This document shows positions 2,741 to 34,688 of a stretch of DNA of 64,000 nucleotides, in pieces. This DNA is from a virus. Below the pieces are notes generated by a model, which saw only the letters and a list, made by a program, of their open reading frames with translations, had not been told where the DNA came from and made no database searches. Location: positions 63,117-127,116 of IMG/VR virus record IMGVR_UViG_3300025151_008277; one strand, 5' to 3'. How positions within the stretch are numbered: position 1 is the first letter of the stretch; every line of letters starts with the position of its first letter. Position numbers and translations under genes: made by a program.

Positions 2741-3421
2741 ATGAGAATTGCAATCAGCGGCACTGCATGTCAAGGTAAAAGTACTTTAATTAAAGACTTT
2801 AAAGAAAGGTGGCCGAGTTATAAATCTCCTGATAAAACTTATAGAGATATTATAACTGAACAAAATTTAGAACATTCATCTACTACTAATAAGGAGACTC
2901 AGATGGCTATTCTTAATTTTATGATTGATGAGCTTCAAAAAACATCTAAAGGAGATAAAGTTATCTTCGATAGATGTCCTCTTGATAATATTGTCTATAG
3001 TATTTGGGCTGAGGCTAAAAAGGAGTCAGATATTGATGATGCTTTTATTAAAAAGTGTATGACGTTAGTCAGCGAATCTTTAAGATTTATTGATATGATT
3101 TTATTCGTACCTATAACTAAGGTTGCTCCAGTAGAAATAGAAGAAGATAATTTAAGAGATACAAACGAAGATTATATTGAAGAAATAGATAATATTTTCA
3201 AAGCAGTTCATAGAGATTATATGAATAATCCTCGTTCTTCTTTTTTCGTAGAAGATGATAGACCCGCTATTATTGAAATTTTCGGCAGCAGGAAAGAGCG
3301 CATAGAATTAATTAAATTATATCTCGATAATGACGGGGATTTCATTGAACCTGGTAATATTATTACCGAAGAAGAATTGAGAGAAATGGAAAAACTCAAA
3401 AAAGCGTTCGGGGTTGACTAA
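2741..3421 (+). CDS. P-loop nucleotide-kinase-like protein (AAA_28/NadR-type)
   Basis: N-terminal ISGTACQGKST Walker A, DRCPLD motif. Confidence 0.75.
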   Translation: MRIAISGTACQGKSTLIKDFKERWPSYKSPDKTYRDIITEQNLEHSSTTNKETQMAILNFMIDELQKTSKGDKVIFDRCPLDNIVYSIWAEAKKESDIDDAFIKKCMTLVSESLRFIDMILFVPITKVAPVEIEEDNLRDTNEDYIEEIDNIFKAVHRDYMNNPRSSFFVEDDRPAIIEIFGSRKERIELIKLYLDNDGDFIEPGNIITEEELREMEKLKKAFGVD

Positions 3422-3429
3422 ATAATTTA

Positions 3430-3618
3430 ATGAACTATGACGAGCTATGCGAAGGGTATCTTACCGTTAAGACCCGAATGTTTTATCCACGTAATCTAGA
3501 ACTGTCTAAAGAGTTTGTAGAAGCTTTTAAGCGTGAGTACGCTAGACTTTCTGAATCAGGTGAAAATAAGAAAAACTTACACTCTAGAATGAGTAAAGCT
3601 TTACGTTTTCATCTTTAA
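3430..3618 (+). CDS. Hypothetical protein
   Basis: 62 aa ORF preceded by TAAATA-N5-ATG. Confidence 0.6.
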   Translation: MNYDELCEGYLTVKTRMFYPRNLELSKEFVEAFKREYARLSESGENKKNLHSRMSKALRFHL

Positions 3619-4350
3619 TTCATCTAATCTACCAACGATATACTTCAAAATTTCACTACGTACTACTTCAGTCGCAGTAAATTCGTAGGTATATATCCCT
3701 TGACATTCAGACATATAGTCACTGAATAAGTTATATATATCCATAAAACCAGATCTATTACCGATATCGGATTGTCTTGCATCTCCTACAATAAAATACT
3801 TACAATTAGTACCAATTCTAGTTAAAATAGTAATAATTTCTGGTAGAGTTAAGTTTTGAGCTTCATCTACAATAACACAACTATTACGAAAAGTAGCACC
3901 TCTAACAAAATTAACTGGAATACCTCTTACAATATCTTCAGAAATTAAATTTTTAGCAGATGTTTCAGTTAGTAATTCCTGAAGCTTATCAAATAAAGGA
4001 TACATCCAAGGTAAGAACTTTTCATCAGCTTCTCCGGGAAGAGAACCTAGACTCCTAGAAGAAGATTCTACAATGCTTCTAACATATACTATCTCATCTA
4101 CGTAATTACTTTTTAAACATTGCAATGCTGCTAGTACAGATATATATGTTTTTGCTGATCCAGCTGGACCGTCAATCATTGATATTTTAGTCTTTTTATT
4201 TAAAGCTAACTCAATAAACGATTTATGAATATCTGTAAGTTCAAATTCTTGGTTAATTTCAAAATTGGTGAAGTAATTTTTTTGAATCCTCTCTTCAATA
4301 TCCTTTGAAGCCTTACTGGGCTTCTTAGATTCCCGTTTTTGTCTAGGCAT
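3601..4350 (-). CDS. phoH: PhoH-like ATPase
   Basis: GPAGSAKT, LGSLPG, RGATF, IVDEAQN, TRIG, GDARQSD, VVRS. Confidence 0.92.
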   Translation of the reverse strand: MPRQKRESKKPSKASKDIEERIQKNYFTNFEINQEFELTDIHKSFIELALNKKTKISMIDGPAGSAKTYISVLAALQCLKSNYVDEIVYVRSIVESSSRSLGSLPGEADEKFLPWMYPLFDKLQELLTETSAKNLISEDIVRGIPVNFVRGATFRNSCVIVDEAQNLTLPEIITILTRIGTNCKYFIVGDARQSDIGNRSGFMDIYNLFSDYMSECQGIYTYEFTATEVVRSEILKYIVGRLDELKMKT

Positions 4351-4399
4351 ATCGTATAATTATTTATTGACTTTTCTCTATTATCGATATAATAATAGC

Positions 4400-5050
4400 A
4401 TGGAAGTTAACTTAGTTTCAATTACTAAACCAGAAATTAAATTTGATACTGAAGGAACGGCTGAAGATTTAATCGCTTACTGTGCTCGAGTCTCTAATCC
4501 CACTAATCAACACAATACAGCAACTGCACCTAAGCTTTTAGGTTACCTTATTAAACATAAACATTGGTCTCCTTTTGAGATGGTTGATATGTGTCTAGAA
4601 ATTAAAACCTCTAGAGCAATTGCAGCTCAAATTTTACGACATCGTTCTTTTTCTTTTCAAGAGTTTAGTCAGAGATATAGCAACGCTACAAATTTAGAAG
4701 ATATTACTTGGCGTCTACAAGGTAAAACTAATAGACAAGTCGGTGAAGAGACATATTATTTGGATGATGTAAACCAAGATATTATTGATCAACATCTCAA
4801 ACTATCTACTACGTTATATAATGATTTAATTGATAAAGGAGTAGCAAAAGAGTGTGCTCGTATGATTTTACCTTTGTGTACTGAGACTACTATGTATATG
4901 AAAGGATCAATTAGATCTTGGGTACATTATATTGATTTAAGATCTAAAGAAGACACCCAACAAGAACATAGAGATATTGCATTGAAATGTAGAGATATTT
5001 TTGTAAATAATTTTCCTAATACTTCTAAAGCATTAACATGGACTCAGTAG
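4400..5050 (+). CDS. thyX: Flavin-dependent thymidylate synthase
   Basis: HWSPFE, QILRHRSFSFQEFSQRY signature, KECARMILP; start at ATG 4400 after TTGACT-N15-TATAAT-N6. Confidence 0.96.
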   Translation: MEVNLVSITKPEIKFDTEGTAEDLIAYCARVSNPTNQHNTATAPKLLGYLIKHKHWSPFEMVDMCLEIKTSRAIAAQILRHRSFSFQEFSQRYSNATNLEDITWRLQGKTNRQVGEETYYLDDVNQDIIDQHLKLSTTLYNDLIDKGVAKECARMILPLCTETTMYMKGSIRSWVHYIDLRSKEDTQQEHRDIALKCRDIFVNNFPNTSKALTWTQ

Positions 5051-5793
5051 GTGTAATAATTCTCACAAAAGATAACTTTGATGTAATTAAAAGATGCTTA
5101 GATTCTTTTGTAGAAAAAAATACCTATGATAATATTAATTTTTATATTGGGGATACCGGGTCAAGCCAGAATAATTTAGATAAATTATACGAATATGTTA
5201 AAGAGTTTAAATATACTACTAGAGTTATAAAATTTAATTATTATAATTTTGCAAAAAATAATAATTGGATAGTCAACAACTTAATAAAAGAGCGTTTCAT
5301 TTTATTCTGTAATGATGATATTGAACTTATTAACGACTCATTAACTAATTTAGTTAATAACTGGTCTGAAGATTTGGGAACCGTGGGCTGTAAGTTACTC
5401 TTTTCTAATAATCTTATACAGCACGCTGGCCAAATACACGTTATGTCAGGCTCTGACCCTATTGGTGCTACTCACAAGTTATATAACGAAAAAGATAGAA
5501 AGTTAGATATAGAATATAATGCTGGCAATACTTTTGCATTTTGCTTAACAACTAAAAAAGTATTTGATACGGTTAATGGCTTAAATACAAACTTTAAAAC
5601 ATGTTTTGAAGATGTAGCTTTTAATATATCTTGCTCTCAGGTAGACTTAAAGCATAAATTTGTCGGAACTACCTCGTGTTACCATCATGAAAGTGTTTCT
5701 CGTAAGAAAAGTAAAAATGATTATATAGCAGAAAATGATTCTCTTTTATTAATGTCGTTAATGAGAAAATTTTATAAAAATAAAACAAAGTAA
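5038..5793 (+). CDS. Glycosyltransferase family 2
   Basis: GDTGS, NFAKNNN, LFCNDD, IQHAG, FEDV, HHES. Confidence 0.85.
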   Translation: MDSVGVIILTKDNFDVIKRCLDSFVEKNTYDNINFYIGDTGSSQNNLDKLYEYVKEFKYTTRVIKFNYYNFAKNNNWIVNNLIKERFILFCNDDIELINDSLTNLVNNWSEDLGTVGCKLLFSNNLIQHAGQIHVMSGSDPIGATHKLYNEKDRKLDIEYNAGNTFAFCLTTKKVFDTVNGLNTNFKTCFEDVAFNISCSQVDLKHKFVGTTSCYHHESVSRKKSKNDYIAENDSLLLMSLMRKFYKNKTK

Positions 5794-5794
5794 T

Positions 5795-7111
5795 ATGAAA
5801 ACTTTAAACAATTTATTTGATCAAAACACTAAACCTTACCTGCTTATTGGCAAAGGCCCGTCGTTTAATATAATTGATAAAATTTTATTAAACAAGTACT
5901 TCACAATAGCATTAAATCATGCAGTAGAAAACACACAATGTGATGCTGTCTCTATTATTGATATAGATGTTGTTAGAGATTGCCCTGAAGCAATATACCG
6001 CAATGCTAAAACTCTTATAATACCGTGGCATCCTCATGATAAAAATAATAATTTTCAACCGTGTAGTAAAACTATCGTAGATTATTGTAAGGAAATAAAG
6101 GTTTTAGGAGATATGCTTGCTGAGGGTAGAATACACTCCTATAATGCTAGTAGCGCAAAAGCTTTTAACTTTGAAGACAATAAAGAACTACCTAACTATA
6201 ATGTTTTTATTAATAACGGAGACAGTATATTCACTATGCTAGTAGCTAACAATAATAAAAAAATATATTCTATTGGTATTGACGGTGGTACAACATATAG
6301 TAGTTCGTTTTCTAATTATAAGCCTGGTGGTAATGGTCGAAGCTTTGAAGAGAGTTTAGCGGTCATTAAGAAGGTAGAAGAACAAAGTAATGCTGAACTT
6401 ATTAGATTAGGGGAATTAGAAGAAATAAAAGTATTTGTAGGTTGTTCTGAAGCAGAGCTCGTACCTACTAAAGTATTAGAATATTCAATAAAGAAAAACA
6501 CTAATAATCCTGCATCTATTATTCCGTTATTTCAATGTGATACTAAACATAGAGTGCCTCAGAACCCTCAATGTCGACCTAGAACTCCGTTCTCTTTTCA
6601 AAGATTTTTTATACCTTCTCTGACTAGCGGTAAAGCATTTTATTTTGACTCTGATATGCTGGTCTTTAAAGATATGGCAGAGTTACTCTCTTATGATTTT
6701 GAAGGGTATGACGCCTTGTCTTGTAAAGACATGAATATATACGGTCATTGGAAAGGTTCTGAGTATGCAGTATTAATGCTCGATTGTGATAATATTAAAT
6801 GGGATATCAACTCTATTATTGATGATTTAGATTCTGGTAAACTTACATACGAAAAATTAATGTTTGATTTTGCCATGGCTAAAGTAAATCCGGTTTTTGA
6901 TCCATCGTGGAATAGTCTTGATACATACGAGGAAAATAAAACAGCAAATCTTCACTATACTAATATGAACACGCAACCATGGCGACATAATGGTAGTCCG
7001 TATATGAATTTGTGGTTCAAATATTTAAAAGAAGCAGTAGATAATAATATTTTATCTAAAGAGTTAGTAGTAAGTCATGGCCAAAAAGGTCATATAAGAA
7101 AATTTAAATAA
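5795..7111 (+). CDS. Two-domain protein: N-terminal GxGPS (GT29/MAF-like) domain fused to a GT8-like glycosyltransferase
   Basis: N-term LIGKGPS/ALNHA/IGIDG; C-term KVFVG, TPFSFQRF, YFDSDML, WNSLD, LHYT..QPW. Confidence 0.7.
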   Translation: MKTLNNLFDQNTKPYLLIGKGPSFNIIDKILLNKYFTIALNHAVENTQCDAVSIIDIDVVRDCPEAIYRNAKTLIIPWHPHDKNNNFQPCSKTIVDYCKEIKVLGDMLAEGRIHSYNASSAKAFNFEDNKELPNYNVFINNGDSIFTMLVANNNKKIYSIGIDGGTTYSSSFSNYKPGGNGRSFEESLAVIKKVEEQSNAELIRLGELEEIKVFVGCSEAELVPTKVLEYSIKKNTNNPASIIPLFQCDTKHRVPQNPQCRPRTPFSFQRFFIPSLTSGKAFYFDSDMLVFKDMAELLSYDFEGYDALSCKDMNIYGHWKGSEYAVLMLDCDNIKWDINSIIDDLDSGKLTYEKLMFDFAMAKVNPVFDPSWNSLDTYEENKTANLHYTNMNTQPWRHNGSPYMNLWFKYLKEAVDNNILSKELVVSHGQKGHIRKFK

Positions 7112-7112
7112 T

Positions 7113-7805
7113 ATGATAGGTATCAATTTAAGTAAGAAAATATTAAACGAAGTTAATAACTTATTACCATGGCATACCAAAACTAATATTTCTAGAGATA
7201 TAATTTTAGGCAAATCTCAAAATTCTAATAAAAGAAATTATATTGAGAAAATACCTGATGATAGAATTACTAATTTAGATAGCTTAATTAATTTATCTGA
7301 TAAAACAGTACTTGAGATGGGTTGTCTTGAAGGTTCTCATACCTTAGGTTTACTGCAATATGCGAAAGAAGTTGTTTCTATTGATTGTAGACCGGTTAAC
7401 GTTATTAAAACTTTAACTCGTTTGAGCTTTCATGGTAAAACTTCCCGAGTTTTTTGTTTTAACGCAGATGACTTATCAGTAGATAATTATGGTTTTTATG
7501 ATGTTATATTTCACTGCGGTGTTTTGTATCACCTTAAAGATCCTATATCTCATTTAAATAATATTTTTAAAATGTGTAACTATATATTTTTAGATACACA
7601 CGTTACAGAAGGTTCTAATAAAATAGTACCTGAAAATAATTGGAAAGCTCCGTTTGCTGGTAAAGATGATACTGCTTTGTGGTTAAATGTGGATGAGCTA
7701 GAAAAAATTTGTACTGATAATAGTTTTACTGTTAATAAACTTGAAAGAAGAGATGAGCGTAATGGTCTTAGAATATCTTGGTTACTAGAAAAAAATGAAA
7801 AATAA
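7113..7805 (+). CDS. Class I SAM-dependent methyltransferase (CmoB/DUF1698-like)
   Basis: VLEMGCLEG motif I, YDVIFHCGVLYHL. Confidence 0.82.
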   Translation: MIGINLSKKILNEVNNLLPWHTKTNISRDIILGKSQNSNKRNYIEKIPDDRITNLDSLINLSDKTVLEMGCLEGSHTLGLLQYAKEVVSIDCRPVNVIKTLTRLSFHGKTSRVFCFNADDLSVDNYGFYDVIFHCGVLYHLKDPISHLNNIFKMCNYIFLDTHVTEGSNKIVPENNWKAPFAGKDDTALWLNVDELEKICTDNSFTVNKLERRDERNGLRISWLLEKNEK

Positions 7806-8157
7806 ATTAGGTAAAATATGGGGTAATACCTTTCCTCTTTTTAATAAAAACAATGTAGAGATACATAGAATTGAAATTAATAAAGGAGGTTTTTGCAGTA
7901 AACATAAGCATGTATATAAGTATAACTGTTTTTTTGTGGAGACAGGTAAGCTTAAAATTTCTGTATGGAAGAATGATTATGATCTTAAAGATATAACAAT
8001 TCTTAACAACAAAGAATCTACAATTATACCTCACGGAGAATATCATCAGTTTGAAGCATTAGAAGATACTATATGTTATGAGATTTATTGGGTAGAATTA
8101 AATGAAAACGATATAGTAAGAGACAATCACGGAGGTAACATAAATTATGAAACATAG
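7795..8157 (+). CDS. Cupin (sugar isomerase/epimerase-like)
   Basis: KIWG, CSKHKH, FFVETG, IPHGEYHQF. Confidence 0.78.
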   Translation: MKNKLGKIWGNTFPLFNKNNVEIHRIEINKGGFCSKHKHVYKYNCFFVETGKLKISVWKNDYDLKDITILNNKESTIIPHGEYHQFEALEDTICYEIYWVELNENDIVRDNHGGNINYET

Positions 8158-8893
8158 AGTTGCTATTTGTCTATCTGGCTTAGTAGGCAATAGCAAAGGT
8201 AAAAGTCATGACCACGAAGACGACGACTCTAAAGTTCTAGAATTATCTATACCGCATTGGAACTTTTTTACATCAAATTATGAATGTGATTATTTCATTC
8301 ATACTTGGTCCGGTCATTTAAAGCAAGATATTATTAACGGATTAAAACCTGTTGATATCATAACACAAGATCAACCATCGTTTGATATACCTAAATATGT
8401 GCCTGGTTCTTTTGAGAGAAAACATGCTCACTGGTGTAGATGGTTTTCTATAAAAGAATCTGTGAGATTAAAACAAGAGCATGAAGAAAAGAATAATATA
8501 CGTTATGATAGTGTTATAGTTTCTAGATTTGATTTAGCTTGGGCTAAACAAATCGATTTTAAATATCTCGATATGAACAAAATGTGGTTACCTAGATGGT
8601 TTGAGAACGGTAATCTTGTTGACCCTATAAACTACAAATGCAAAGATTATTGGTTTCTTTCTTCATCCAAAAATATTGATAAATTTTCTTCTCTTTACGA
8701 CTCCTTAAACACCTATACAAAAACTGGAGCTTGTCGTATTAATACTGCAATGGGAGTATCTAGTCACTACTTAGCTGCATATCACATAAAAAATCTCGGT
8801 ATTGAAGTTGGCCATGTTTTAGAAGCTCGAGATAATTTTTTAAATTGCGACTTTCCCGTTATAAGATTTAAATACTTTTCCGCAAATATTTAA
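8147..8893 (+). CDS. Putative glycan-active protein (xAICLSG family)
   Basis: RVAICLSG, FIHTW, YDSVIVSRFDL; same pattern as 14435..15490. Confidence 0.55.
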   Translation: MKHRVAICLSGLVGNSKGKSHDHEDDDSKVLELSIPHWNFFTSNYECDYFIHTWSGHLKQDIINGLKPVDIITQDQPSFDIPKYVPGSFERKHAHWCRWFSIKESVRLKQEHEEKNNIRYDSVIVSRFDLAWAKQIDFKYLDMNKMWLPRWFENGNLVDPINYKCKDYWFLSSSKNIDKFSSLYDSLNTYTKTGACRINTAMGVSSHYLAAYHIKNLGIEVGHVLEARDNFLNCDFPVIRFKYFSANI

Positions 8894-8921
8894 TTGAGTT
8901 TTTATTTTTATATCTTATAAT
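8894..8921 (+). promoter_or_regulatory. Sigma70-type promoter for the sugar core operon
   Basis: TTGAGT-N16-TATAAT-N8-ATG. Confidence 0.6.
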
Positions 8922-8929
8922 TTAGCGTA

Positions 8930-9397
8930 ATGAGTACATACCAACATAGTGATAAGTGGATCGAAGAAGCTCTTAATCAATATAAAGATAAGATTGATAA
9001 CAAAAAAGATCATCGTTTAGATGTTAGTTCTTATAAAGTAGAAAAGCCGTGGGGTCATGAAGTATGGTTAGAATTAAATGAGTTCTATGCATATAAAATC
9101 ATTCATATGAAAGCGGGTAACCAAAGTAGTCTTCAATGGCACGAAAAGAAAGTAGAGACTAATTATGTAATTGAAGGAAAAGCTGAGGTATTGCTACAAA
9201 ATGAGAAAGGTGAAATCGACTCTAAAATTTATGAAGCTGGTTCCGGTTGGTCAGTGCCTCTCCAAACTAAACATAGAGTAATCGCTATTACAGATTATAC
9301 CGCACTTGAAGTATCTACACCTCATCTAAATGATTGTATACGTTTTGAAGATGATAGTAATAGATCTAGTGGTAAAATCGATTCAGAGCATAGCTAA
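8930..9397 (+). CDS. Cupin, mannose-6-phosphate isomerase (type II C-terminal)-like
   Basis: VEKPWG, SSLQWHEKKVET, HRV, LEVSTP, RFED. Confidence 0.82.
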   Translation: MSTYQHSDKWIEEALNQYKDKIDNKKDHRLDVSSYKVEKPWGHEVWLELNEFYAYKIIHMKAGNQSSLQWHEKKVETNYVIEGKAEVLLQNEKGEIDSKIYEAGSGWSVPLQTKHRVIAITDYTALEVSTPHLNDCIRFEDDSNRSSGKIDSEHS

Positions 9398-9400
9398 TAT

Positions 9401-10936
9401 ATGCCTAAAGTATGTATATTAGCAGCAGGTATAGGTTCAAGGAATAAATGTATTGAGGGCTTACATAAAGCTCTCTTACCCTTGAATAATAAACCTGTTA
9501 TTTCTCATATAATTGATTCATTTCCTCAAGATATGGAAATAGTCATTGCTCTTGGGTATAAACAAAAGCAATTACTTTCTTATTTAGAAGAAGTACATAC
9601 TTCTAAAAATATTACTTATGTTACTGTAGATAATTTTGATAAATCTGGATCAGGTCCCGGATATAGTCTTTATCAATGTAAAAACCATTTACAAGAGCCG
9701 TTTATTTTTACTTCAGTAGATACTTTATTAGATGAGTTTCCTGTAAGCGTTGATAGTAATTGGATCGGTACTTCTAATATAGATGAAAAAAAATCTTCTA
9801 GTTATTGTTTAGTTTCAGTAGATAACGAAACCGTAAAAGATTTATATTACGGTAGTGGTAATTTAGCTTTCGTTGGAACTGCTGGTGTTAAGGATTATAA
9901 GACATTTTGGAATAATTTAGAAAAAACATTATTATCAGTTAACGAAATACAAGTTATACCTGCATTACAGAGTCTTACTAATATTAAGGCTATTAATTCT
10001 GTATGGTATGATACTGGTAACATAGAATCCTATTACAATACTAAAAAGGTATATAATAATGATATTGTAGCCCCTAAAAATAACGAAACAATATTTTTAG
10101 ACAATAATCTCGTAATAAAATACTTTAGTAATTCTAAAAAGAACTTAAGTCGAGTTGAACGAGTTAAATTCTTAAACGATTGTACACCAGATACAACATA
10201 TCTTAATGACAACATGTATTGTTATGAATATATTAATGGAGCTCTATTAAGCAATATTACTAACGTTGAGATTATGAGAGAGTTTTTTAGTTTTTGTGAT
10301 AGTAAACTCTGGTTAAAGAAAAATAGAGATGATATTTTTATTAGTAATTGTAGGTCTATGTATGAATTCAAAACTAAATCTAGGATAAATGAATTAATAG
10401 ATAGTGATTTAGATAAAATACGATTTATTAACGGGCTTGAGGTACAACCTATTAGAACAATTTATGAAAAAATAGGTTGGGGACAAATTTATAATAATGC
10501 TTTACCGGTTTCTTTTCACGGAGACCTACAACCAGAAAATATTATATACAATAATGAGAGATTTTTTCTTATAGACTGGAGAGAGTCTTTTGGTAACAGT
10601 CTTGAAGTGGGGGATATATATTACGATCTATCTAAACTGTATCATGGTTTAGATATTAACGGTACTTTAATGAATAGTAAAAATTATTTTTATAACATTG
10701 AAGATAAATCTGCCAATATAGGATACAACATAAAGAGTAATTTGATCGATCTTAAAGACACACTCAAAACTTTTGTTATTGAAAAAGGTTTGGATTGGTA
10801 TAACATAAGATTGTTAGGTGCATTGCATTATTTGAATATTTGTACATTATATAAAGACTTTCATAACGGAGAGTATGGTAGGTTTTTATTTCTTTATAGC
10901 AAATATCTTTTACAAAACATCTTGCAAAACAAATAA
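9401..10936 (+). CDS. Sugar nucleotidyltransferase fused to an APH/choline-kinase-like phosphotransferase
   Basis: N-term ILAAGIGSR, HKALLP, WYDTG; C-term FHGDLQPENI, LIDWR, YYDLSKL. Confidence 0.85.
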   Translation: MPKVCILAAGIGSRNKCIEGLHKALLPLNNKPVISHIIDSFPQDMEIVIALGYKQKQLLSYLEEVHTSKNITYVTVDNFDKSGSGPGYSLYQCKNHLQEPFIFTSVDTLLDEFPVSVDSNWIGTSNIDEKKSSSYCLVSVDNETVKDLYYGSGNLAFVGTAGVKDYKTFWNNLEKTLLSVNEIQVIPALQSLTNIKAINSVWYDTGNIESYYNTKKVYNNDIVAPKNNETIFLDNNLVIKYFSNSKKNLSRVERVKFLNDCTPDTTYLNDNMYCYEYINGALLSNITNVEIMREFFSFCDSKLWLKKNRDDIFISNCRSMYEFKTKSRINELIDSDLDKIRFINGLEVQPIRTIYEKIGWGQIYNNALPVSFHGDLQPENIIYNNERFFLIDWRESFGNSLEVGDIYYDLSKLYHGLDINGTLMNSKNYFYNIEDKSANIGYNIKSNLIDLKDTLKTFVIEKGLDWYNIRLLGALHYLNICTLYKDFHNGEYGRFLFLYSKYLLQNILQNK

Positions 10937-10960
10937 TTTAGAATAAAATATTTAGTAAAT

Positions 10961-11605
10961 ATGAATACGGGAGATTATATAGATTTATACAAAAAAGAAT
11001 CTATCGATATTGTTAACAATGTTTCTAGCGCTTCAATAGAGCAGTTTATTAATTTAATCTATGAAGCTTATACAACTGAAAATACAGTTTATCTTGCAGG
11101 TAACGGAGGTAACGCTGCGTACGTACAGAATTTCGTTGTTGACCTAAACATGCATCCGTTTGTTTCAGAAGATAAATCATCTAATTCTAGTATACCTCGT
11201 AATTTATTTAAATCTGTTAGTCTTTGTAGTGATCCCGCAACTATATCAGGTATAAGTAATGATTTAGGATTTAATTCTATCTTTAAAGAGCAAATGAAAT
11301 ATCAAGGTATCCGAAATGATATCTTTATTGGTATTTCCGGTTCAGGTAATTCTAAAAATATTCTTGAAGCTATGGAGTTCAATTCTCGTAAAGGTATAAA
11401 AAATATTTTACTTACGAGAAATAAAGAAAATAAATGTAATGAGTTCGCAGATTTAACTATTAGTGTTGACGGCGTTTCTAAATTCCCTGGCCAAACAGGT
11501 GGTAATAATAATAACTTTCATTTTGAAGATTTTATTTCTAAGCTGTCTCATATCACTGTAGGTATTTTAAAATTAAGAGTACAGCAAAGGATACAAAATG
11601 CTTAA
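10961..11605 (+). CDS. gmhA: SIS-domain phosphosugar isomerase (GmhA-like)
   Basis: LAGNGG, ISNDLGFNSIF, ISGSGNSKN; the active-site segment is divergent (NAAYVQN). Confidence 0.75.
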   Translation: MNTGDYIDLYKKESIDIVNNVSSASIEQFINLIYEAYTTENTVYLAGNGGNAAYVQNFVVDLNMHPFVSEDKSSNSSIPRNLFKSVSLCSDPATISGISNDLGFNSIFKEQMKYQGIRNDIFIGISGSGNSKNILEAMEFNSRKGIKNILLTRNKENKCNEFADLTISVDGVSKFPGQTGGNNNNFHFEDFISKLSHITVGILKLRVQQRIQNA

Positions 11606-12359
11606 ACCAAACATATTACGCAAAAAAGTTTTAGATTTAGTCTATAAAAAGAAATCTGGTCATATAGGTGGTAGTTTTTCTATTGCAGAGCTTATATGTA
11701 CTTTATATAATGATTATAATATCGGAGAAACTGATAAGCTTATTTTATCTAAAGGTCACTCTGTACCTATTGTTTATGCCGCCTTACATGAGTTAGGTTT
11801 AATTAGTGATGATGATCTTGATAAGTTTAGAGAGATAGACTCTCCCCTTCAAGGTCACCCTGATAAAAATAGGTTAAAACATCTCCACGCTACTACAGGC
11901 TCTCTCGGCCAAGGCTTAAGCATCTCCGTCGGCCATGCTTTAGCTAAAAAGCATAAAAAACTTAATGGTACTGTTTTTTGTATATTAGGCGACGGAGAAA
12001 TTCAAGAAGGTCAGGTATGGGAGGCATTTTTATCTGGTTCCAAATTTAACTTAGATAATCTTGTATGTTTTATTGACTGGAATAAAGCTCAAAGCGAAGG
12101 ATTTGCTTCTGATGTTATGCCGATGTATGAAAATTTAACCGAAAAAATATCATCTTTCGGTTGGCATAGCGTTTTAATAAATGGTCATAATATATACGAT
12201 ATTAAAAGTAGTATAGATAATAGAGTTAAAGATAAGCCTACTTGTATTGTACTCGACACAGTTAAAGGTAAAGGTGTTTCTTTTATGGAAGAACCTAAAT
12301 GGCATTCTAAGTGCCCTACAGAAGAAGAATATAATAAAGCAATAAAGGAGTTATTATGA
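11598..12359 (+). CDS. Transketolase, N-terminal (TPP-binding) subunit
   Basis: GHIGG, LSKGH, LQGHP, TGSLGQG, GDGEIQEGQVWE, TVKGKG. Confidence 0.93.
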   Translation: MLKPNILRKKVLDLVYKKKSGHIGGSFSIAELICTLYNDYNIGETDKLILSKGHSVPIVYAALHELGLISDDDLDKFREIDSPLQGHPDKNRLKHLHATTGSLGQGLSISVGHALAKKHKKLNGTVFCILGDGEIQEGQVWEAFLSGSKFNLDNLVCFIDWNKAQSEGFASDVMPMYENLTEKISSFGWHSVLINGHNIYDIKSSIDNRVKDKPTCIVLDTVKGKGVSFMEEPKWHSKCPTEEEYNKAIKELL

Positions 12360-13276
12360 AAGCAACAAGAGATGCAGTAAATGATATTCTACCACAAGCA
12401 GGAGAGAAGCACTCTAACATAGTTGCGTTAGATGCCGACTTAGGCGGAGCTACTAAGATAAAAGCTTTTGGTCAGAAATACCCTGATAGATATTTTCAAG
12501 TAGGTATTGCCGAAGCTAATATGATTAGTATTGCTTCAGGTATGTCTGAATATGGCCTCAAAGTATTTTTAGCTTCTTTTAGTGCTTTCCTTACTGGTAG
12601 ATATGATATTATACGTTGTAGTATATGTTATCCTAATCAACCAGTTGTTTTAGTTGGTAGTCATGTTGGAATGGCTATAGGTAAAGATGGTGTTACTCAA
12701 ATGGGTCTTGAAGATGTTAGTATAATGCGCGCATTACCTAATATGAATATTTTAAATCCATGTAATTATACACAGGCTTGTAAAGTTATTGAGTATCTTT
12801 GTGATACTGAACTCACTCAACCACATTATTTACGTATTGGTAGAACACCTGTAGAAGATTTTGATATAGATTTTGAGTTTAATAAAGGAGTGATCGTTAG
12901 ACCGGGTAAAGATGTAACTTTGTTTAGTACGGGTTGTATTTTGAGTGATGTATTAGAAGCTTCTTACATTATTGAGCGAAATACTAATTTATCTGTACGG
13001 GTAGTAGACTTCTCTACTTTAAAACCTATAGATAAAAAATTAATATATAAATGCGCCACTGAAACTGATCATCTATTTACAGTCGAAGATCATTCCATAG
13101 TAGGCGGCTTAGGATCGATAGTTTCCGAAGTATTATGTGAAACATATCCTGCAAAATTACATAGAATAGGATTGAATGATCAATTCCCTGAATCAGGTCC
13201 TCCAGCAGACTTGTATAGCAAATATGGTTTGAATGCAGAAGGTATAGCAAATTCTGTATGCAGTAATATTAGCTAA
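12356..13276 (+). CDS. Transketolase, C-terminal subunit
   Basis: LDADL, VGIAEANM, DGVTQMGLED, TLKPID, VEDHSIVGGLGS. Confidence 0.93.
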   Translation: MKATRDAVNDILPQAGEKHSNIVALDADLGGATKIKAFGQKYPDRYFQVGIAEANMISIASGMSEYGLKVFLASFSAFLTGRYDIIRCSICYPNQPVVLVGSHVGMAIGKDGVTQMGLEDVSIMRALPNMNILNPCNYTQACKVIEYLCDTELTQPHYLRIGRTPVEDFDIDFEFNKGVIVRPGKDVTLFSTGCILSDVLEASYIIERNTNLSVRVVDFSTLKPIDKKLIYKCATETDHLFTVEDHSIVGGLGSIVSEVLCETYPAKLHRIGLNDQFPESGPPADLYSKYGLNAEGIANSVCSNIS

Positions 13277-14073
13277 TGTTAATAGACAATAAGACCAAAT
13301 TATTTTTCTCAGCAGCTATGTCTCCAGGTAATTTTGGAGCTACTGTATATAATTCTCTTTTTAATCACTATCAAATTAATGCAGTTTACCTTCCAAAGAG
13401 ATTTGATAACGCTGAGTCGATTATTACAGCGTTATCTGTTTTAGATATACAAGGCTGCAGTATCACTATGCCTTTCAAGAGCGATGTTCTTAAATTCTTA
13501 GATGTAACTAATGATATAGTTGACAATACCTTTTCAGTAAACACTATAGTTAAAAAAGAAGATAAGCTGTATGGATATAATACAGATTATTTTGCGGTTC
13601 AACAAATAATTAAATCTCTAGACTTTAAAACAGTTTTAGTTTATGGATCTGGATCAGTTACTAATACAGTAATTCACTGCTTGATAAAAAACGGTATAAA
13701 ACCGACTGTTGTATCTCGCAATAAGGAGGCATTAAAAAATATATATTGTAGGTATTATGTTGAAGCAATATATGAGAAAGATTTTGTTGTAGAAAATAAT
13801 GCATTTGATCTTTTAATAAATTGTACACCAGTAAGTAACAACGAAGATTCCTTTCCGTTCGAATTATTAAAGGTATGTAATCAATTATTTGACTTAGTAG
13901 TGGATAAGAAGGAGACTAGGTTATGCGAAGTTGCGAAACAAAATAAAAAGAAGTATATTAAAGGGTGCGACATGTCAAAATGGCAGCTACAAAATCAATT
14001 CTTGCATTATATTGGATTTGCTCCTAATATGGATATAATAAATCGTATACTTAACAGTCAGTTCTATGAATAA
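13276..14073 (+). CDS. Shikimate dehydrogenase-like oxidoreductase (SdhL/HI0607-like subclass)
   Basis: SITMPFK, VNT, GYNTD, YGSGS, INCTP; N-term has PGNFG instead of the AroE SxSP. Confidence 0.8.
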   Translation: MLIDNKTKLFFSAAMSPGNFGATVYNSLFNHYQINAVYLPKRFDNAESIITALSVLDIQGCSITMPFKSDVLKFLDVTNDIVDNTFSVNTIVKKEDKLYGYNTDYFAVQQIIKSLDFKTVLVYGSGSVTNTVIHCLIKNGIKPTVVSRNKEALKNIYCRYYVEAIYEKDFVVENNAFDLLINCTPVSNNEDSFPFELLKVCNQLFDLVVDKKETRLCEVAKQNKKKYIKGCDMSKWQLQNQFLHYIGFAPNMDIINRILNSQFYE

Positions 14074-14434
14074 CGACCATCGCCCTTATACTATTTTTTG
14101 TGACATTGACGGTACTTTAACTAAACAGGCAACAGCTAGTGAAGTAGCTAACCCTGAGTTTGTTTTAGAGCTATTACCAGGTGTGATACAGAAACTAAAA
14201 GAGTGGGACCAAAAAGGGTATAATATTATTCTTACTACCGGGAGGAAAGAAAGTATGAGATTTTCTACAGAGTCTCAACTAAAACGCGCAGGCATTTTTT
14301 ATGATAAGCTTATTATGGGTATAGGTGGTGGTAAGCGCTTTCTTATAAATAACTTCAAAAGAGATAGCGATATACCGTACGCTAGTAGTATCAATATACC
14401 TATTAACACAGGATTAACTGATATTGAGATTTAA
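14066..14434 (+). CDS. Capless HAD-family phosphatase
   Basis: FCDIDGTL, LTTGR, YDKLIMG. Confidence 0.8.
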   Translation: MNNDHRPYTIFCDIDGTLTKQATASEVANPEFVLELLPGVIQKLKEWDQKGYNIILTTGRKESMRFSTESQLKRAGIFYDKLIMGIGGGKRFLINNFKRDSDIPYASSINIPINTGLTDIEI

Positions 14435-15490
14435 TTATCTTAAATCTTCTATATTTTTAGTTAAGTCTTCTATTGCTCCTTTATACCCTTTGTATTTAAA
14501 AATATCTTTCTCGCGAAAGAACTCTACAACTCTACCATAATTGAGTTTATTCTCTCTTGTAAAATCACATATAAACCTATTCATTTCATCTAACCATATG
14601 TGATAATATCTCATGGCTTCTGGGTCTGTATTTTTATCATGCTTTTTATAGTAGTACTCTCGAGCTACAGCCCAATCGATAATAAAGGTATGCTGAAAGC
14701 TTATTTGGTTTTTGAGCCCAAAATAACCCCATCTTATTTCTGGCGGTGCATGTCTTAAACTAGCCCAGTATTCATCCCATATGTTAGGATGGTTATCTCT
14801 TTTATTAGCGAGAATATCGGCTGACATTACTGTCATATTTTTATGGTATTGGTCCATTGCTCGCGGTTCCCCACCAAACATTTGATCACCTATTTGTAGA
14901 ACCCCCTTTCTCACATCTATATATGGTATACCTATTACTGATTCAAACTCCGCTCTGTTATTTACATACTTAACCCAGTCATAAAAATAATTCTTATGAA
15001 ACCTATGATCAAATTTTCCATTATACCAATAAAAATCAGGTCTTATCCTCACAACATAATCATATTCAAAGTCGTTTTCTAATTCATATTGTCTTCTCAG
15101 CTCAAGAACTCTCTCAGCTTGATAAAATTGACCGAAATACATATAATTCCAATGCTTCGCGGCTTGTAAATCGTCTTTATCAGATATGTTTTCTTCTATT
15201 ATTTTTCTTATACCTTCATCGTCTGATTCAATCTTCATTGAAACAGGTTTAATAACATTTTTAACATTGTCTATAACTGCACTAGGAAGCTTTTCTGTGT
15301 GCGGGTCACCTGCAATATCTGCAAAAAGAGTATGTTTACGAGTTATGTAATCAGGAGCGTATATAAAATAATCGATTTGAGAGTCATAATAAAAATAATC
15401 AAAGGTTTCTTTTATATTTTCCAACGTTAAATGAACATCTCTCAACTGAGAGCTAATACACACTGCTAATCTGTTAAGTTTTTTTACCAT
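14435..15490 (-). CDS. Putative glycan-active protein (xAVCIS family)
   Basis: RLAVCISSQLR, YDYVVRIRPD, GDQMFGG. Confidence 0.55.
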   Translation of the reverse strand: MVKKLNRLAVCISSQLRDVHLTLENIKETFDYFYYDSQIDYFIYAPDYITRKHTLFADIAGDPHTEKLPSAVIDNVKNVIKPVSMKIESDDEGIRKIIEENISDKDDLQAAKHWNYMYFGQFYQAERVLELRRQYELENDFEYDYVVRIRPDFYWYNGKFDHRFHKNYFYDWVKYVNNRAEFESVIGIPYIDVRKGVLQIGDQMFGGEPRAMDQYHKNMTVMSADILANKRDNHPNIWDEYWASLRHAPPEIRWGYFGLKNQISFQHTFIIDWAVAREYYYKKHDKNTDPEAMRYYHIWLDEMNRFICDFTRENKLNYGRVVEFFREKDIFKYKGYKGAIEDLTKNIEDLR

Positions 15491-15492
15491 TT

Positions 15493-16548: not shown

Positions 16549-16604
16549 ATGTTGTTGATATTTTCAGAATATACTATAATTTATATAAGAGATAGCTAAA
16601 AGCC

Positions 16605-19626: not shown

Positions 19627-19642
19627 TTGTGTATATAATATT

Positions 19643-26375: not shown

Positions 26376-26376
26376 C

Positions 26377-28131: not shown

Positions 28132-28140
28132 ATAATTAAA

Positions 28141-29442
28141 ATGGCAACTACAACATGGTCAGATTCATTTTTAAGCGCAGGTAGTCATTTATTCTCTACT
28201 AATCTTGCTAATAAAATAGCTAAGTACCAAGATTTAGCAGATAGAATATGTTACGATCTAGGATACCCTTTAGTTAATCTAGAGATTCACGGTCAGCAAC
28301 TGTATACTAATATAGCGCGCTCAGTGGAAATGTTTAGTAAGTTCGCTGGGTACACAGAAGAATTTTTAGTTTTTGATAGTAGCCTTTATACTCGTGGTAA
28401 AGGTTTAAATATAGAAAAATTATTAACCAATACACCTGAGTTAACAAGTACGTATGCTACTACTTTACAAACTACCCAGGCTACAACTAATACGGTTGCT
28501 ACACTTACTTCAATTGATTTCGAAGCTAATTCTGACGATACATTTATTACAGTCTTTCAGTTTGATGTTTCTGATATAGTTGTAGATCCATCTGAATATA
28601 CCTTTACTGTTACACTAGGAGATACTAATACTCAAATTACTAAACTACTTTCGGTAGCTACGTCTGGTGTTCCAACAGCAACAGTAAGTGAAACTGAGTT
28701 CGGTACTGTTTTTACCACTTCCACTGAAATTTTTGAGCTAAGTACTACAGTAGCTAGTAACTTAATATCTATTGGGTTAGTTCCTAAGACTGATAAATCT
28801 GGTTCTATAGTAGCAAACAGAAACGCTACAGTTATTAACGATACTACGACAACAACACTTACTACACAAAAAGCTATTATAGCTAATTTTGATGAACTAA
28901 CCAAACAATATCGTAAAGTTATTGAAGTATATAGCTTTGACGAAGCTAGTAATAGCGGTATCAATAACCTTTTTACCATCGAGCAGACATTAGCGCAACA
29001 AACTTATTTTAGTTATGCTATGGGTAACTATGGATTTGATTTAATTAGTTGGTATATATTAAAGCAGTGGATGGAAACGAGAGAGAAAATGCTCTCTATA
29101 CGTCGTACGTTTAAGTTTGATGATAGGACTCAGCATTTACATTTGTTCCCTGAACCAAAAACAGGAGAAAGCTTTTACGGGGTAGTAGGAGCTTATGTTG
29201 AAAAACCAATTAGAGACTTAATTGTAGAGCCATGGGTCTTTCAGTACGCATCTGCATTAACTAAAATATCAATCGGTAGGGTTCGTAGTAAGTTCGGTGG
29301 TACTCAATTATTTGGTGGAGGTACATTAGATACTTCCTTGTTACAAGAAGGTCTTTCAGAGAAGAAAGAGTTGGAGCAAATGTTATTGACTGGTACTCCA
29401 GGATTTGGTGACGCAGCTCCGCCTCAATTCTTCGTAGGATGA
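28141..29442 (+). CDS. gp13: Neck protein (T4 gp13-like) with an inserted Thr-rich domain
   Basis: LGYPLVNLEI, WVFQYASALTK, RSKFGG..LFGGGTL, PPQFFVG C-terminus. Confidence 0.8.
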   Translation: MATTTWSDSFLSAGSHLFSTNLANKIAKYQDLADRICYDLGYPLVNLEIHGQQLYTNIARSVEMFSKFAGYTEEFLVFDSSLYTRGKGLNIEKLLTNTPELTSTYATTLQTTQATTNTVATLTSIDFEANSDDTFITVFQFDVSDIVVDPSEYTFTVTLGDTNTQITKLLSVATSGVPTATVSETEFGTVFTTSTEIFELSTTVASNLISIGLVPKTDKSGSIVANRNATVINDTTTTTLTTQKAIIANFDELTKQYRKVIEVYSFDEASNSGINNLFTIEQTLAQQTYFSYAMGNYGFDLISWYILKQWMETREKMLSIRRTFKFDDRTQHLHLFPEPKTGESFYGVVGAYVEKPIRDLIVEPWVFQYASALTKISIGRVRSKFGGTQLFGGGTLDTSLLQEGLSEKKELEQMLLTGTPGFGDAAPPQFFVG

Positions 29443-29897
29443 TACATAAAAAAGGAGATTTTAAAAAAGGTCTTTTTAGACCAAAAAATAAAAACAAGTA
29501 CATCGGTCAAAAGCACCCAGCTTACAGAAGCTCTTGGGAGCTTTATTTTTTTCAGTGGTGTGATCGTAACCCTAATGTACTTGAATGGGCTTCTGAAGCA
29601 GTAATTGTTCCATATATTTCCCCTTTAGACAATAAAGTACATAGATATTTTGTTGATAACATATTAATACTAAAAGAGGGTAGTAAGAACGTAAAATACC
29701 TTGTAGAGATTAAACCGTATAAACAAACTATACCACCTAACGCTACAAGAAGAAAAAAAAGAGAGACATTGCTACACGAACAAGCAACATATGAGGTTAA
29801 TAAAGTTAAATGGGAAGCTGCGTCAGAATGGGCAAAGAAAAACGGTTACAAATTCATTATCATCACAGAGAAAGAACTATTTCCTGAGAAAAAGTAG
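29439..29897 (+). CDS. gp4: Head completion nuclease (T4 gp4-like, TnsA-like)
   Basis: YRSSWE, WASE, HRYFVD, LVEIKP, KWEAA, IITEKEL. Confidence 0.9.
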   Translation: MIHKKGDFKKGLFRPKNKNKYIGQKHPAYRSSWELYFFQWCDRNPNVLEWASEAVIVPYISPLDNKVHRYFVDNILILKEGSKNVKYLVEIKPYKQTIPPNATRRKKRETLLHEQATYEVNKVKWEAASEWAKKNGYKFIIITEKELFPEKK

Positions 29898-29905
29898 TTT
29901 ATAAG

Positions 29906-29913
29906 TATAAATA
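29906..29913 (+). promoter_or_regulatory. T4-type late promoter for the prohead operon
   Basis: Exact TATAAATA upstream of gp21. Confidence 0.7.
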
Positions 29914-29936
29914 TTTAGTAAAAGTAATTTAAGCAA

Positions 29937-30596: not shown

Positions 30597-30615
30597 TTTA
30601 CAATAAATAATTATG

Positions 30616-30765: not shown

Positions 30766-30766
30766 A

Positions 30767-31636: not shown

Positions 31637-31710
31637 TTTAAACTTGTTGAGGTACTTGCTACCTGATCTCCAATGTAAAGGACCCTTTTAAACCCAATAT
31701 ATAAAATATT

Positions 31711-33177: not shown

Positions 33178-33200
33178 TTCTGATATTCACAATATAAACA

Positions 33201-33234
33201 AAAAGGGTCCGCGAAAGCGGGCCCTTTTCTTTTT
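33201..33234. terminator. Bidirectional intrinsic terminator between gp23 and queF
   Basis: AAAAGGGTCCGC-GAAA-GCGGGCCCTTTT with a GNRA loop, flanked by A and T tracts. Confidence 0.9.
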
Positions 33235-33249
33235 ATATGAACACTTACC

Positions 33250-34155
33250 TTATTGTCTACCAGTCTTTGACCATGGAACATCTTCGTTCCATAGTTTTTC
33301 TTCTATTAGATGTTCATGAGAACATCGCTGTGGGTTAATATCCCACCCACCTCGTCTCACATAGAGACAAGTAACAGAAAGTTCTTGAGGATTGAATTTA
33401 TCCCAAAGCCTCTTATAAATAGTCTCACAGATCTCTTCATGAAAGTGACATTCATCTCTAAACGATACAATGTACTTTAGCATGCTACCATATGTAGGGA
33501 CTTTATTACCTTTCATATGAATATAAACATCCCCCCAGTCAGGTTGCGAAGTAACCCTGCAGTTACTCTTAAGTAGTTGAGAAGATACTTTATAGTCTTC
33601 AATACCTGTAGATTCAAACTCCTCTAGAATATCAGGATTCTCGGAATACTCTTCAATATCTAAACTAATAAACTTCTCTTCTAAGTTATCATACAGTAAT
33701 TGTTCTTTTAAGAACTCATTTACTCCGATTTCAAGATTAACCGGATCAAATAATTGTACCCTTACATCTGTTTGTAGTAGTTTACTTAGATCTGCTTCAG
33801 CTAATTCTTTTACTTTCTTGAATACTTCACAAGCATCACCGCCTAATTTCTCCATATTGAAGCTATTCCAATAAAGCTTCATAGACTTTGATTCTACGAT
33901 GTATTTACTATTACAAGGGTACACTACCTTCGCTGCAAAAGCCGTCGGGAGACCTGAATCTAGAAGGGCAGACACCTCATATCCGTTCCATACATCACAT
34001 CCAACGAAGGGAAGCTGTGTACTTTTGATTTTAAGGTGCTTTCTATTGTTAGATCTAGGCTCTCTCACGAGTAACTTAGGATCATATGTAGACTTATATT
34101 GACTTGACTGGCCAAGGTGCTTACTGATATTACTATTATCTAATTTATCGCTCAT
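33250..34155 (-). CDS. queF: NADPH-dependent preQ0 reductase, bimodular QueF
   Basis: DVWNGYEVS, VESKSMKLYWNSF, LLKSNCRVTSQPDWG, FHEEICE, RRGGWDINP. Confidence 0.93.
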   Translation of the reverse strand: MSDKLDNSNISKHLGQSSQYKSTYDPKLLVREPRSNNRKHLKIKSTQLPFVGCDVWNGYEVSALLDSGLPTAFAAKVVYPCNSKYIVESKSMKLYWNSFNMEKLGGDACEVFKKVKELAEADLSKLLQTDVRVQLFDPVNLEIGVNEFLKEQLLYDNLEEKFISLDIEEYSENPDILEEFESTGIEDYKVSSQLLKSNCRVTSQPDWGDVYIHMKGNKVPTYGSMLKYIVSFRDECHFHEEICETIYKRLWDKFNPQELSVTCLYVRRGGWDINPQRCSHEHLIEEKLWNEDVPWSKTGRQ

Positions 34156-34688
34156 ATTAAAAAGTTTTTTAAAGTTTGCATACGCTCACTTACTGTTCCT
34201 GATATTTTAACTACATTCTCGAATTTTTCAATACCAATCTCTTCGTATATCTCTATAATTCGTTCTCTAAATTTAACATCAGTAGATCTTTCCCCATCAT
34301 CCACTAACTTAACATCTTTAGGATCAGTATAAAATATCTTACTATATCTATTCAAATATTTTTCAAAAGACTCTTTTAGTATATTATAAGTCTTCTTACT
34401 CACTTTATTATTCTCATAAAAGTATTTCGTATAAACATACCCATCAAATATACATCTATCTAATATCCAATTACCCTTCCTATTAATATTATTCATATGA
34501 TGTTCCCAAATCTGTAATTGAGTATTATCATAAGAACTAGCTTCATTATTGATATCAAAACCTTTTCTTTTGATATCTCTTGTTACTTCATCTACAAATT
34601 GATAGCCTTTATGACTATACAATGCTTTACACAATGTAAGTAAAGTAGTCTTTCCAGTTGATTGAGCCCCAGTAAAAGAAAATATCAT
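34152..34688 (-). CDS. P-loop nucleotide-kinase-like protein (AAA_28)
   Basis: FTGAQSTGKTT, LDRCIFD, DDGERS. Confidence 0.78.
   Translation of the reverse strand: MIFSFTGAQSTGKTTLLTLCKALYSHKGYQFVDEVTRDIKRKGFDINNEASSYDNTQLQIWEHHMNNINRKGNWILDRCIFDGYVYTKYFYENNKVSKKTYNILKESFEKYLNRYSKIFYTDPKDVKLVDDGERSTDVKFRERIIEIYEEIGIEKFENVVKISGTVSERMQTLKNFLI

Follow-up and report, generated by a model that had tools for sequence, protein, structure and literature searches.

Two AAA_28 kinases accompany the 7-deazaguanine DNA modification genes of a T4-like phage and may serve a route through the nucleotide pool

We analyzed a 64,000-nucleotide stretch of viral DNA (hereafter the window), positions 63117-127116 of IMG/VR record IMGVR_UViG_3300025151_008277 (127,116 bases, estimated 61% complete), in which genes for 7-deazaguanine DNA modification are accompanied by two small P-loop kinases of the Pfam family AAA_28, here termed kinase A and kinase B. 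The window derives from a T4-like myovirus of about 32% G+C: the portal, gp23 capsid protein and prohead protease are of T4 type, and family B polymerase genes are present. When the first 12 kb was searched by megablast against isolated phages, nothing was returned, and no isolate is near at the DNA level. Gene matches for the program-called open reading frames were assigned chiefly by Pfam, NCBIfam and PHROG profiles (Table 1).

A preliminary description of this stretch had reported one AAA_28 kinase directly after queE and another between the formyltransferase gene and queF. Both open reading frames are present there, and both products score above the AAA_28 gathering score of 27 bits. Kinase A starts 21 nucleotides (nt) past the end of QueE. 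Kinase B lies about 31 kb away in a series of four minus-strand genes (DpdA3, DpdN, kinase B, QueF) whose successive ends overlap by 8, 4 and 4 nt, which argues that kinase B is part of one operon. The same description had the pathway split into two halves, a division that has to be redrawn: QueC and a separate glutamine amidotransferase are encoded outside the window, about 13 kb before its start (G000:C1:49320-50644), so that pathway genes stand in three places. The QueC gene and the adjoining class II glutamine amidotransferase gene are located between UvsX/RecA and the DnaB helicase, near PolB; the pair corresponds to the fused Gat-QueC of phage 9g in split form, and the present phage also has QueF.

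Table 1. Deazaguanine genes, the two kinases and neighboring nucleotide genes, in window coordinates
Feature	Positions	Strand	Evidence
GTP cyclohydrolase FolE2, first step from GTP	234..1268	-	Pfam GCHY-1 E 2.9e-73; NCBIfam FolE2 280 bits (cut-off 215)
QueD-like CPH4 synthase	1340..1780	+	Pfam PTPS E 6.4e-16
QueE-like radical SAM CDG synthase	1922..2719	+	PHROG 2076 QueE-like E 3.9e-41; NCBIfam QueE matches weak
Kinase A, AAA_28 (NadR-type), 226 amino acids	2741..3421	+	Pfam AAA_28 52.3 bits, E 1e-13
PhoH-like ATPase, kept neighbor of kinase A	3601..4350	-	Pfam PhoH E 3.5e-47
QueF (bimodular), preQ0 to preQ1	33250..34155	-	Pfam QueF_N and QueF; NCBIfam QueF E 6.7e-76
Kinase B, AAA_28, 178 amino acids, core member of the DpdA3 module	34152..34688	-	Pfam AAA_28 72.2 bits, E 7.6e-20
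DpdN-like PurN-family formyltransferase	34685..35257	-	Pfam Formyl_trans_N E 5e-9; nearest solved sequences glycinamide ribonucleotide (GAR) transformylases, E 3.8e-8
DpdA3-type transglycosylase homologue, 268 amino acids	35250..36056	-	44% identity over 99% of length to immuto protein annotated DpdA; PHROG 19058 E 3e-48
Gpt/HGPRT-like purine phosphoribosyltransferase	40742..41215	-	Pfam Pribosyltran E 5e-18; NCBIfam xanthine phosphoribosyltransferase 73 bits (below cut-off 138)
Class I ribonucleotide reductase, large and small subunits (NDP to dNDP)	48745..52161	+	Ribonuc_red_lgC E 1.9e-136; Ribonuc_red_sm E 4.4e-51

Systematic examination of gene neighborhoods in uncultivated viruses revealed that kinase B is tightly tied to DpdA3 and QueF. 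Among the best 80 of 206 confirmed IMG/VR relatives, QueF follows the kinase in all 80 loci, while DpdN precedes it in 75 and DpdA3 in 74; our impression, which is not a locus-by-locus count, is that the misses fall mostly on short loci. A second scan with a divergent alignment, for which the best 80 of 205 relatives were fetched, reached immuto-like and other clades and returned DpdA3 in 75, QueF in 72 and DpdN in 54 of the 80 loci. A phosphoribosyltransferase was present in 32 loci of this second set and in 15 of the first. A search for longer forms of the kinase recovered one protein from a metagenome (P0243, 375 amino acids) in which DpdN is fused to a kinase; the protein is 54% identical to kinase B. 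In one related locus (L080:3105-8034), about 6 kb of bacterial-type genes are inserted between DpdA3 and DpdN and split the module; this cargo encodes a CHASE2-adenylate/guanylate cyclase, a FecR-like protein and the curli secretion proteins CsgG and CsgF, and a superoxide dismutase gene stands just past QueF.

The pairing recurs in unrelated genomic backbones and with different kinase families. The module lies by the major capsid gene in the window, directly after PolB among the replication genes in locus L037, and before PolA in immuto and locus L221. In Campylobacter phage CP220 the order is an HD-plus-kinase fusion (gp055), DpdA3 and an AAA_28 kinase (gp057), and in Campylobacter phage CC_R7 it is QueC, DpdA3, an AAA_28 kinase and a DNA polymerase. 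Kinase B, the immuto kinase and CP220 gp057 are mutual relatives (E 1e-19 to 1e-22), kinase B being 31% identical to the immuto kinase (E 3e-22) and 33% identical to CP220 gp057 (E 9e-20). Cellulophaga phage phiST carries FolE, a MazG-like protein, DpdL, the AAA_18 kinase CGPG_00066 and DpdA3 in this order, and a phiST-type kinase adjoins a DpdA3-like gene in Chryseobacterium phage MA9V-3; the kinase family of these two phages is AAA_18/33. Thus, a small P-loop kinase adjoins DpdA3 in each lineage checked, with the kinase family varying. Bacillus phage BSTP12 and Weizmannia phage Youna2 probably also have a kinase beside DpdA3, since a P-loop protein with a DR motif occupies the same slot (a weak link, E 1e-4). 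A single control, the DpdA1 cluster of phage 9g, contained no recognizable kinase but was uninformative, since Pfam recognized none of its four proteins, DpdA1 included.

Other enzymes of nucleotide metabolism accompany these pairs. A MazG-superfamily hydrolase stands just before DpdA3 in immuto, and a MazG/PRA-PH-type hydrolase of this kind occurs in 42 of the 80 loci of the divergent scan. In locus L221, the MazG slot is taken by a dUTPase-family protein that is 54% identical to the dUTPase-family protein of the present genome. The purine phosphoribosyltransferase has homologues in immuto and phiST, and it was absent from the Campylobacter matches in the isolated-phage search. CP220 gp055 (L009:6543-7574) joins an HD domain to an AAA_33 kinase directly before DpdA3. 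This architecture also matches that of HD-Pnk RNA end-healing enzymes; gp055 could therefore be either a dGTP hydrolase-kinase or an RNA end-healing enzyme of that type, and we do not count it as firm support.

In phiST, a second kinase lies between the ribonucleotide reductase and a phosphoribosyltransferase. This P-loop kinase adjoins the phosphoribosyltransferase (CGPG_00044-00045, L093:9603-10647) and is two genes from the ribonucleotide reductase; CGPG_00044 has a weak match to DNMK, the family of T4 gp1-type deoxynucleoside monophosphate (dNMP) kinases, at 24.1 bits, below the cut-off of 27.1. The arrangement would suit a route from free base to nucleoside monophosphate (NMP), nucleoside diphosphate (NDP) and deoxynucleoside diphosphate (dNDP).

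The phyletic distribution of both kinases follows that of DpdA3. In a search of 50,697 isolated-phage records, homologues of kinase A were found in only 19, comprising 15 Campylobacter phages of CP220 type and 4 Flavobacterium immuto records, all of them DpdA3 phages. Kinase B recovered the same 19 records together with 33 Streptomyces phages at 27-29.5% identity, and DpdA3 recovered the same 15 and 4 records together with 9 weaker matches. A control search with the clamp loader returned 2,166 T4-like records, 53 of them from Campylobacter phages, and 38 of these 53 (CPX, CP81 and NCTC12673-type) have neither DpdA3 nor the kinases. The preliminary description had proposed co-occurrence across phages as a check, and it is borne out: close homologues are confined to DpdA3 phages, and elsewhere only distant relatives at 27-31% identity occur.

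Cellular genomes yielded almost nothing. A single-protein scan of cellular genomes found no kinase relative. A pattern-based profile scan of 185,579 prokaryote species (one genome each), which sees close relatives only, found one, on a 7.5-kb contig of a metagenome-assembled genome; this short contig is probably viral. As judged from these searches, both AAA_28 kinases occur almost only in viruses.

Kinase A is linked to the pathway in a different manner. Among the best 80 of its 252 relatives, QueE lies upstream in 78 loci and PhoH adjoins in 76. Both types of AAA_28 kinase are present in 7 of 10 long related records, including both that are 100% complete, and the three records with one kinase are 61-70% complete. 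The preliminary description had regarded both kinases as uncharacterized members of the deazaguanine pathway. For kinase B, its placement as a core member of the DpdA3 module is strongly supported by comparative genomics, namely operon synteny with DpdA3 and QueF, recurrence in unrelated backbones and the one fusion; for kinase A, the case for membership comes solely from phyletic distribution.

The predicted folds identify kinases A and B as small-molecule nucleoside/nucleotide kinases. AlphaFold models built from 18-sequence alignments reached a pLDDT (predicted local distance difference test) of 83.7 for kinase A, with deoxyadenosine kinase (dAK), NadR and thymidylate kinase (TMPK) as nearest solved folds, and of 85.6 for kinase B, with dAK, deoxycytidine kinase (dCK), deoxyguanosine kinase (dGK), TMPK and NadR; all matches have template modeling (TM) scores of 0.5-0.7. 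The Walker A P-loop is invariant in both kinase families, and both carry a DR motif after strand 3. The lid motif 'DDG.R' (Asp-Asp-Gly-x-Arg) does not vary across the kinase B family and can be aligned with the lid of NadR chains, to which kinase B has a marginal sequence match (E 0.03-0.1); the kinase A lid is looser (acidic-Arg). The two proteins are distant paralogues, with 32% identity over 92 residues (E 3e-6).

The Pfam dNK cut-off of 27 bits is not reached by kinase A (22.2 bits) or kinase B (23.8 bits), neither matches Thymidylate_kin at E <= 0.01 or the DNMK family, NCBIfam returned no match, and phmmer of each kinase against Protein Data Bank (PDB) sequences gave chance-level matches only. 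Deoxynucleoside and thymidylate kinases (2jat, 8puu, dCK, dGK 2ocp, TMPK) are the nearest solved folds and share the DR motif after strand 3, but family-level agreement with them is lacking. The label 'thymidylate kinase', used in PHROG 2107 and in GenBank phage records, therefore has no family-level support, the likeness being at the level of the fold. The resemblance to the NadR kinase domain is similar in kind: both proteins pass AAA_28, their fold matches NadR structures 6gzo and 6gyf, and kinase B has the shared lid. Unlike NadR, the phage kinases stand alone, without an adenylyltransferase domain, and their fixed partners are DpdA3 and QueF rather than NAD genes. We also weighed, and rejected, a role like that of the 5-hydroxymethyldeoxyuridine (5-hmdU) DNA kinases, in which a side chain on DNA would be phosphorylated: the final bases (deazaguanine, amido and formylaminomethyl forms) share no hydroxyl, yet the kinase is kept.

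The DpdA3 of the window is 40% identical to that of CP220-type phages, somewhat below its identity to the immuto protein (Table 1). Its own link to the superfamily of tRNA-guanine transglycosylase (TGT) and DpdA is faint, consisting of a weak Pfam match to DUF6610 (E 0.005), and a 21-sequence DpdA3 profile matched no TGT or DpdA chain among PDB sequences; an HHpred link to TGT/DpdA is reported in the main text of Cui 2023 (PMC10516641). According to the same text, DpdA3 phages are those with complete replacement of deoxyguanosine (dG), DpdA3 alone could not be made to work in E. coli, and the ADG nucleoside was reported in CP220-infected C. jejuni cells (Cui 2023, PMC10516641). DpdA1, DpdA2 and bacterial DpdA systems draw on the same precursor genes as those found here (FolE, QueD, QueE, QueC, QueF) together with a DpdA-family gene, but the share of G modified in them is 0.01-30%, against 100% in DpdA3 phages (Cui 2023, PMC10516641). 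The phiST kinase CGPG_00066 was set aside there as not common to other phages, and the word 'kinase' does not appear in the article text, whose supplementary gene tables may list some neighbors (Cui 2023, PMC10516641). Our literature search, with subscription papers outside its scope, found no description of a pre-replicative deazaguanine route or of a kinase acting in one.

Full guanine replacement by 7-deazaguanine in some phages is an unsolved problem, for which the kinase, the pyrophosphatases and the phosphoribosyltransferase name candidate missing parts. A base passing straight from its free form into DNA would leave a kinase without anything to act on. The small-molecule kinase found universally beside DpdA3, the retention of two kinases and the recurring pyrophosphatases and phosphoribosyltransferase would be explained most simply by entry of 7-deazaguanine into the nucleotide pool and its phosphorylation there to a deoxynucleoside triphosphate (dNTP). 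That the two kinases phosphorylate 7-deazaguanine nucleosides or nucleotides in such a pre-replicative route, following the logic of T4 hydroxymethylcytosine (hmC), is a proposal that we judge to have an even chance of being right; from the associations described above we infer both the substrates and the point at which the base enters the pool. Kinase B would most likely phosphorylate a 7-deazaguanine (deoxy)nucleoside or its monophosphate, and kinase A would most likely catalyze a second phosphorylation. The phage polymerase would then incorporate the modified dNTP formed in the pool.

In the T4 pathway, the dCTPase gp56, the dCMP hydroxymethylase gp42 and the dNMP kinase gp1 act together. 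The proposal shares its logic: a canonical dNTP is cleared to the monophosphate, the mononucleotide is modified, a dedicated phage kinase raises it, and the polymerase incorporates the product. As expected of a T4-type route, a dedicated kinase is here genetically linked to the modifying enzyme, and in several DpdA3 lineages dNTP pyrophosphatases and kinases flank the modifying gene. There are also differences from T4. An enzyme clearing the canonical dNTP was not found in the present clade, candidates of HD, MazG or dUTPase type being those of immuto, phiST, CP220 and L221; the kinases belong to AAA_28 and not to the gp1 family; and instead of a one-carbon transfer, modification would proceed by base exchange or phosphoribosylation. 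A further precedent is offered by the Z-genome phages (PurZ, DatZ, MazZ), which achieve complete base replacement in the nucleotide pool with HD and MazG-type dNTP hydrolases (described in part in PMC8342488). Replacement in these phages concerns adenine, not guanine. We know of no dedicated kinase described for them.

Two points of entry into the pool can be envisaged. One is an exchange of the guanine of dG or dGMP by DpdA3. In the other, the Gpt-like phosphoribosyltransferase would attach the base to phosphoribosyl pyrophosphate (PRPP), with a kinase and the ribonucleotide reductase acting afterwards; under this second option, removal of residual G from DNA might be all that is left to DpdA3. 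We regard entry through the phosphoribosyltransferase, without DpdA3 acting on nucleotides, as equally open. TubE, a PF00156 phosphoribosyltransferase of tubercidin/toyocamycin biosynthesis, joins PRPP to 7-carboxy-7-deazaguanine (PMC6112128). The phage modules likewise include a PF00156 enzyme, but unlike TubE it is nearest to Gpt, below the family cut-off, and could equally salvage released guanine.

A bolder version can be held only tentatively and has, in our view, clearly less than an even chance. In it, DpdA3 would be a base-exchange enzyme acting between free deoxynucleosides or deoxynucleotides and 7-deazaguanine, not a DNA transglycosylase, and complete dG replacement would arise through a self-contained pool cycle. 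A dNTP pyrophosphatase would yield dGMP or dG, DpdA3 would swap the base, DpdN would formylate the mononucleotide, and the two virus-specific kinases would carry it towards the triphosphate; released guanine would return through the Gpt-like phosphoribosyltransferase to GTP and FolE. The closest relatives of DpdN among solved sequences, the GAR transformylases, have an amine on a ribonucleotide as the group that they formylate. The preliminary description had likewise suggested a pre-replicative route with the DpdA-like enzyme working on free nucleotide: the recurring dNTP pyrophosphatases, the phosphoribosyltransferase and the PurN-like formyltransferase would fit it, and the failure to find a dGTP-clearing enzyme in this clade does not.

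Several observations weigh against a pool route or limit what the kinases can say about it. Cui 2023 (PMC10516641) proposes, in its main text, that all deazaguanine modifications are post-replicative, and reports that each DpdA enzyme tested places the base in DNA. No HD, MazG or PRA-PH enzyme was detected in this 61%-complete genome or in the relatives G001, G006 and G002, two of which are 100% complete, and the sole dNTP pyrophosphatase candidate in the genome is an ordinary-looking dUTPase-family protein. As far as predicted fold and motifs go, the kinases can be assigned no more narrowly than to the dNK/TMPK/NadR superfamily (TM 0.5-0.7), and these features do not separate a nucleoside (5'-OH) kinase from an NMP kinase. 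Since identity to kinase A is 53% or more in every one of its 80 loci, the adjacency of kinase A to QueE may reflect nothing beyond lineage synteny, and the second, A-like AAA_28 kinase of CP220 adjoins a dUTPase gene, not que genes. The fusion of DpdN to a kinase is represented by one cluster, from one contig, and could be a frame error, because the DpdN and kinase genes overlap by 4 nt. Distant AAA_28 kinases also occur without que genes, in Streptomyces phage Karimac (no QueD) and in locus L251 of the divergent scan, where a 31%-identical kinase has no DpdA3, QueF, DpdN, MazG/PRA-PH hydrolase or phosphoribosyltransferase with it.

The kinases could instead serve guanine salvage. DpdA3 would swap bases in finished DNA, the freed guanine (one per site) would be turned into GMP by the Gpt-like phosphoribosyltransferase, and the kinases would raise GMP to GDP and GTP for FolE, which uses one GTP per modified base. 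Such a cycle would account for a Gpt-like enzyme in or near the module here, in immuto, in phiST and in both sets of related loci, and for the grouping of kinase A with the GTP-consuming FolE2, QueD and QueE, and it would keep DpdA3 acting on DNA, as in the published account (main text of Cui 2023, PMC10516641). We nevertheless consider it unlikely: neither kinase belongs to the guanylate kinase family, both are essentially virus-restricted, two are kept where one GMP kinase would do, and DpdA3 is accompanied by a kinase in all lineages but not by the phosphoribosyltransferase, which is missing from the Campylobacter matches. Salvage would also leave the dNTP pyrophosphatases by DpdA3 and the DpdN-kinase fusion unexplained. 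Cast as a non-metabolic partner, the P-loop protein would hydrolyze ATP and thereby make base exchange in DNA by DpdA3 efficient, a role ascribed to the ATPase DpdB in bacterial DpdA systems. The strict one-to-one adjacency with DpdA3 across lineages, which extends to a different P-loop family in phiST and MA9V-3, and the reported inactivity of DpdA3 alone in E. coli (Cui 2023, PMC10516641) are consistent with this role. It appears distinctly improbable, given that the full nucleoside/nucleotide kinase layout is kept, with the NadR-shared lid and an acceptor half rich in invariant polar residues; no likeness to DNA-binding ATPases was seen, and the second kinase 31 kb away would find no explanation.

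Housekeeping functions account for the distribution less well. As general dNMP or thymidylate kinases, the proteins would recycle host-derived canonical nucleotides, and their link to que genes would reflect shared phage ancestry. The 'thymidylate kinase' labels, the TMPK-like fold and the distant relatives in phages lacking que genes speak for this, but the absence of a family-level Thymidylate_kin match, the lack of homologues in some 2,100 further T4-like records as well as in the 38 sister Campylobacter records, and the recurrence of DpdA3 adjacency in unrelated backbones make it a poor candidate with little chance of being correct. Still more remote, to the point of being nearly negligible, is a function as nicotinamide riboside kinases in NAD salvage, the name used by some metagenome sources. 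It draws on AAA_28 being the NadR kinase family, on the Joint Genome Institute (JGI) names of some homologues and on the NadR-shared lid motif; no NMN (nicotinamide mononucleotide) adenylyltransferase or other NAD gene adjoins, and the fixed partners are again DpdA3 and QueF.

A kinase tied to DpdA3 turns the question of pre- versus post-replicative modification into a few direct assays. If phosphorylation of 7-deazaguanine nucleosides or nucleotides in a pool route is correct, nature would offer an enzymatic way of making 7-substituted 7-deaza-dGTPs. The two proteins would then define a virus-specific kinase family that is new, and the phage records that label them 'thymidylate kinase' would stand corrected.

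Regulation of kinase A was also considered. The preliminary description had cautioned that a late-type TAAATA box of its own might separate kinase A from queE. TAAATA is present (2730-2735), but this site lacks the complete T4 late box, TATAAATA, and across the window that octamer shows no enrichment (9 occurrences versus 18.5 expected). TAAATA is therefore uninformative on the regulation of kinase A, the caveat carries no weight, and we dropped the idea of a T4 late promoter.

Beyond kinase A and PhoH, the window contains a 16-kb block of sugar-nucleotide and glycan genes (5038-21350). It encodes GT2, GT8, GT1, GT9-like and pyruvyl transferases, a methyltransferase and cupins, along with a nucleotidyltransferase with a kinase-like domain, a SIS isomerase, a split transketolase, a shikimate-dehydrogenase-like protein, a HAD phosphatase and a radical SAM/SPASM enzyme. 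The block resembles a heptose-type pathway, with the host surface, the virion or DNA as candidate targets. A DUF366 protein follows at 21430-22026 (E 7e-21), and it lies within 10 kb of kinase A in 5 of the 80 related loci. Two genes are probably homing-endonuclease insertions, namely a TnsA-like endonuclease between head genes (29439-29897) and a T5orf172 (GIY-YIG-like) gene after the ribonucleotide reductase (52582-52932). The phage also encodes a full-length double AAA+ chaperone of ClpB/ClpA type (785 amino acids, 45405-47762).

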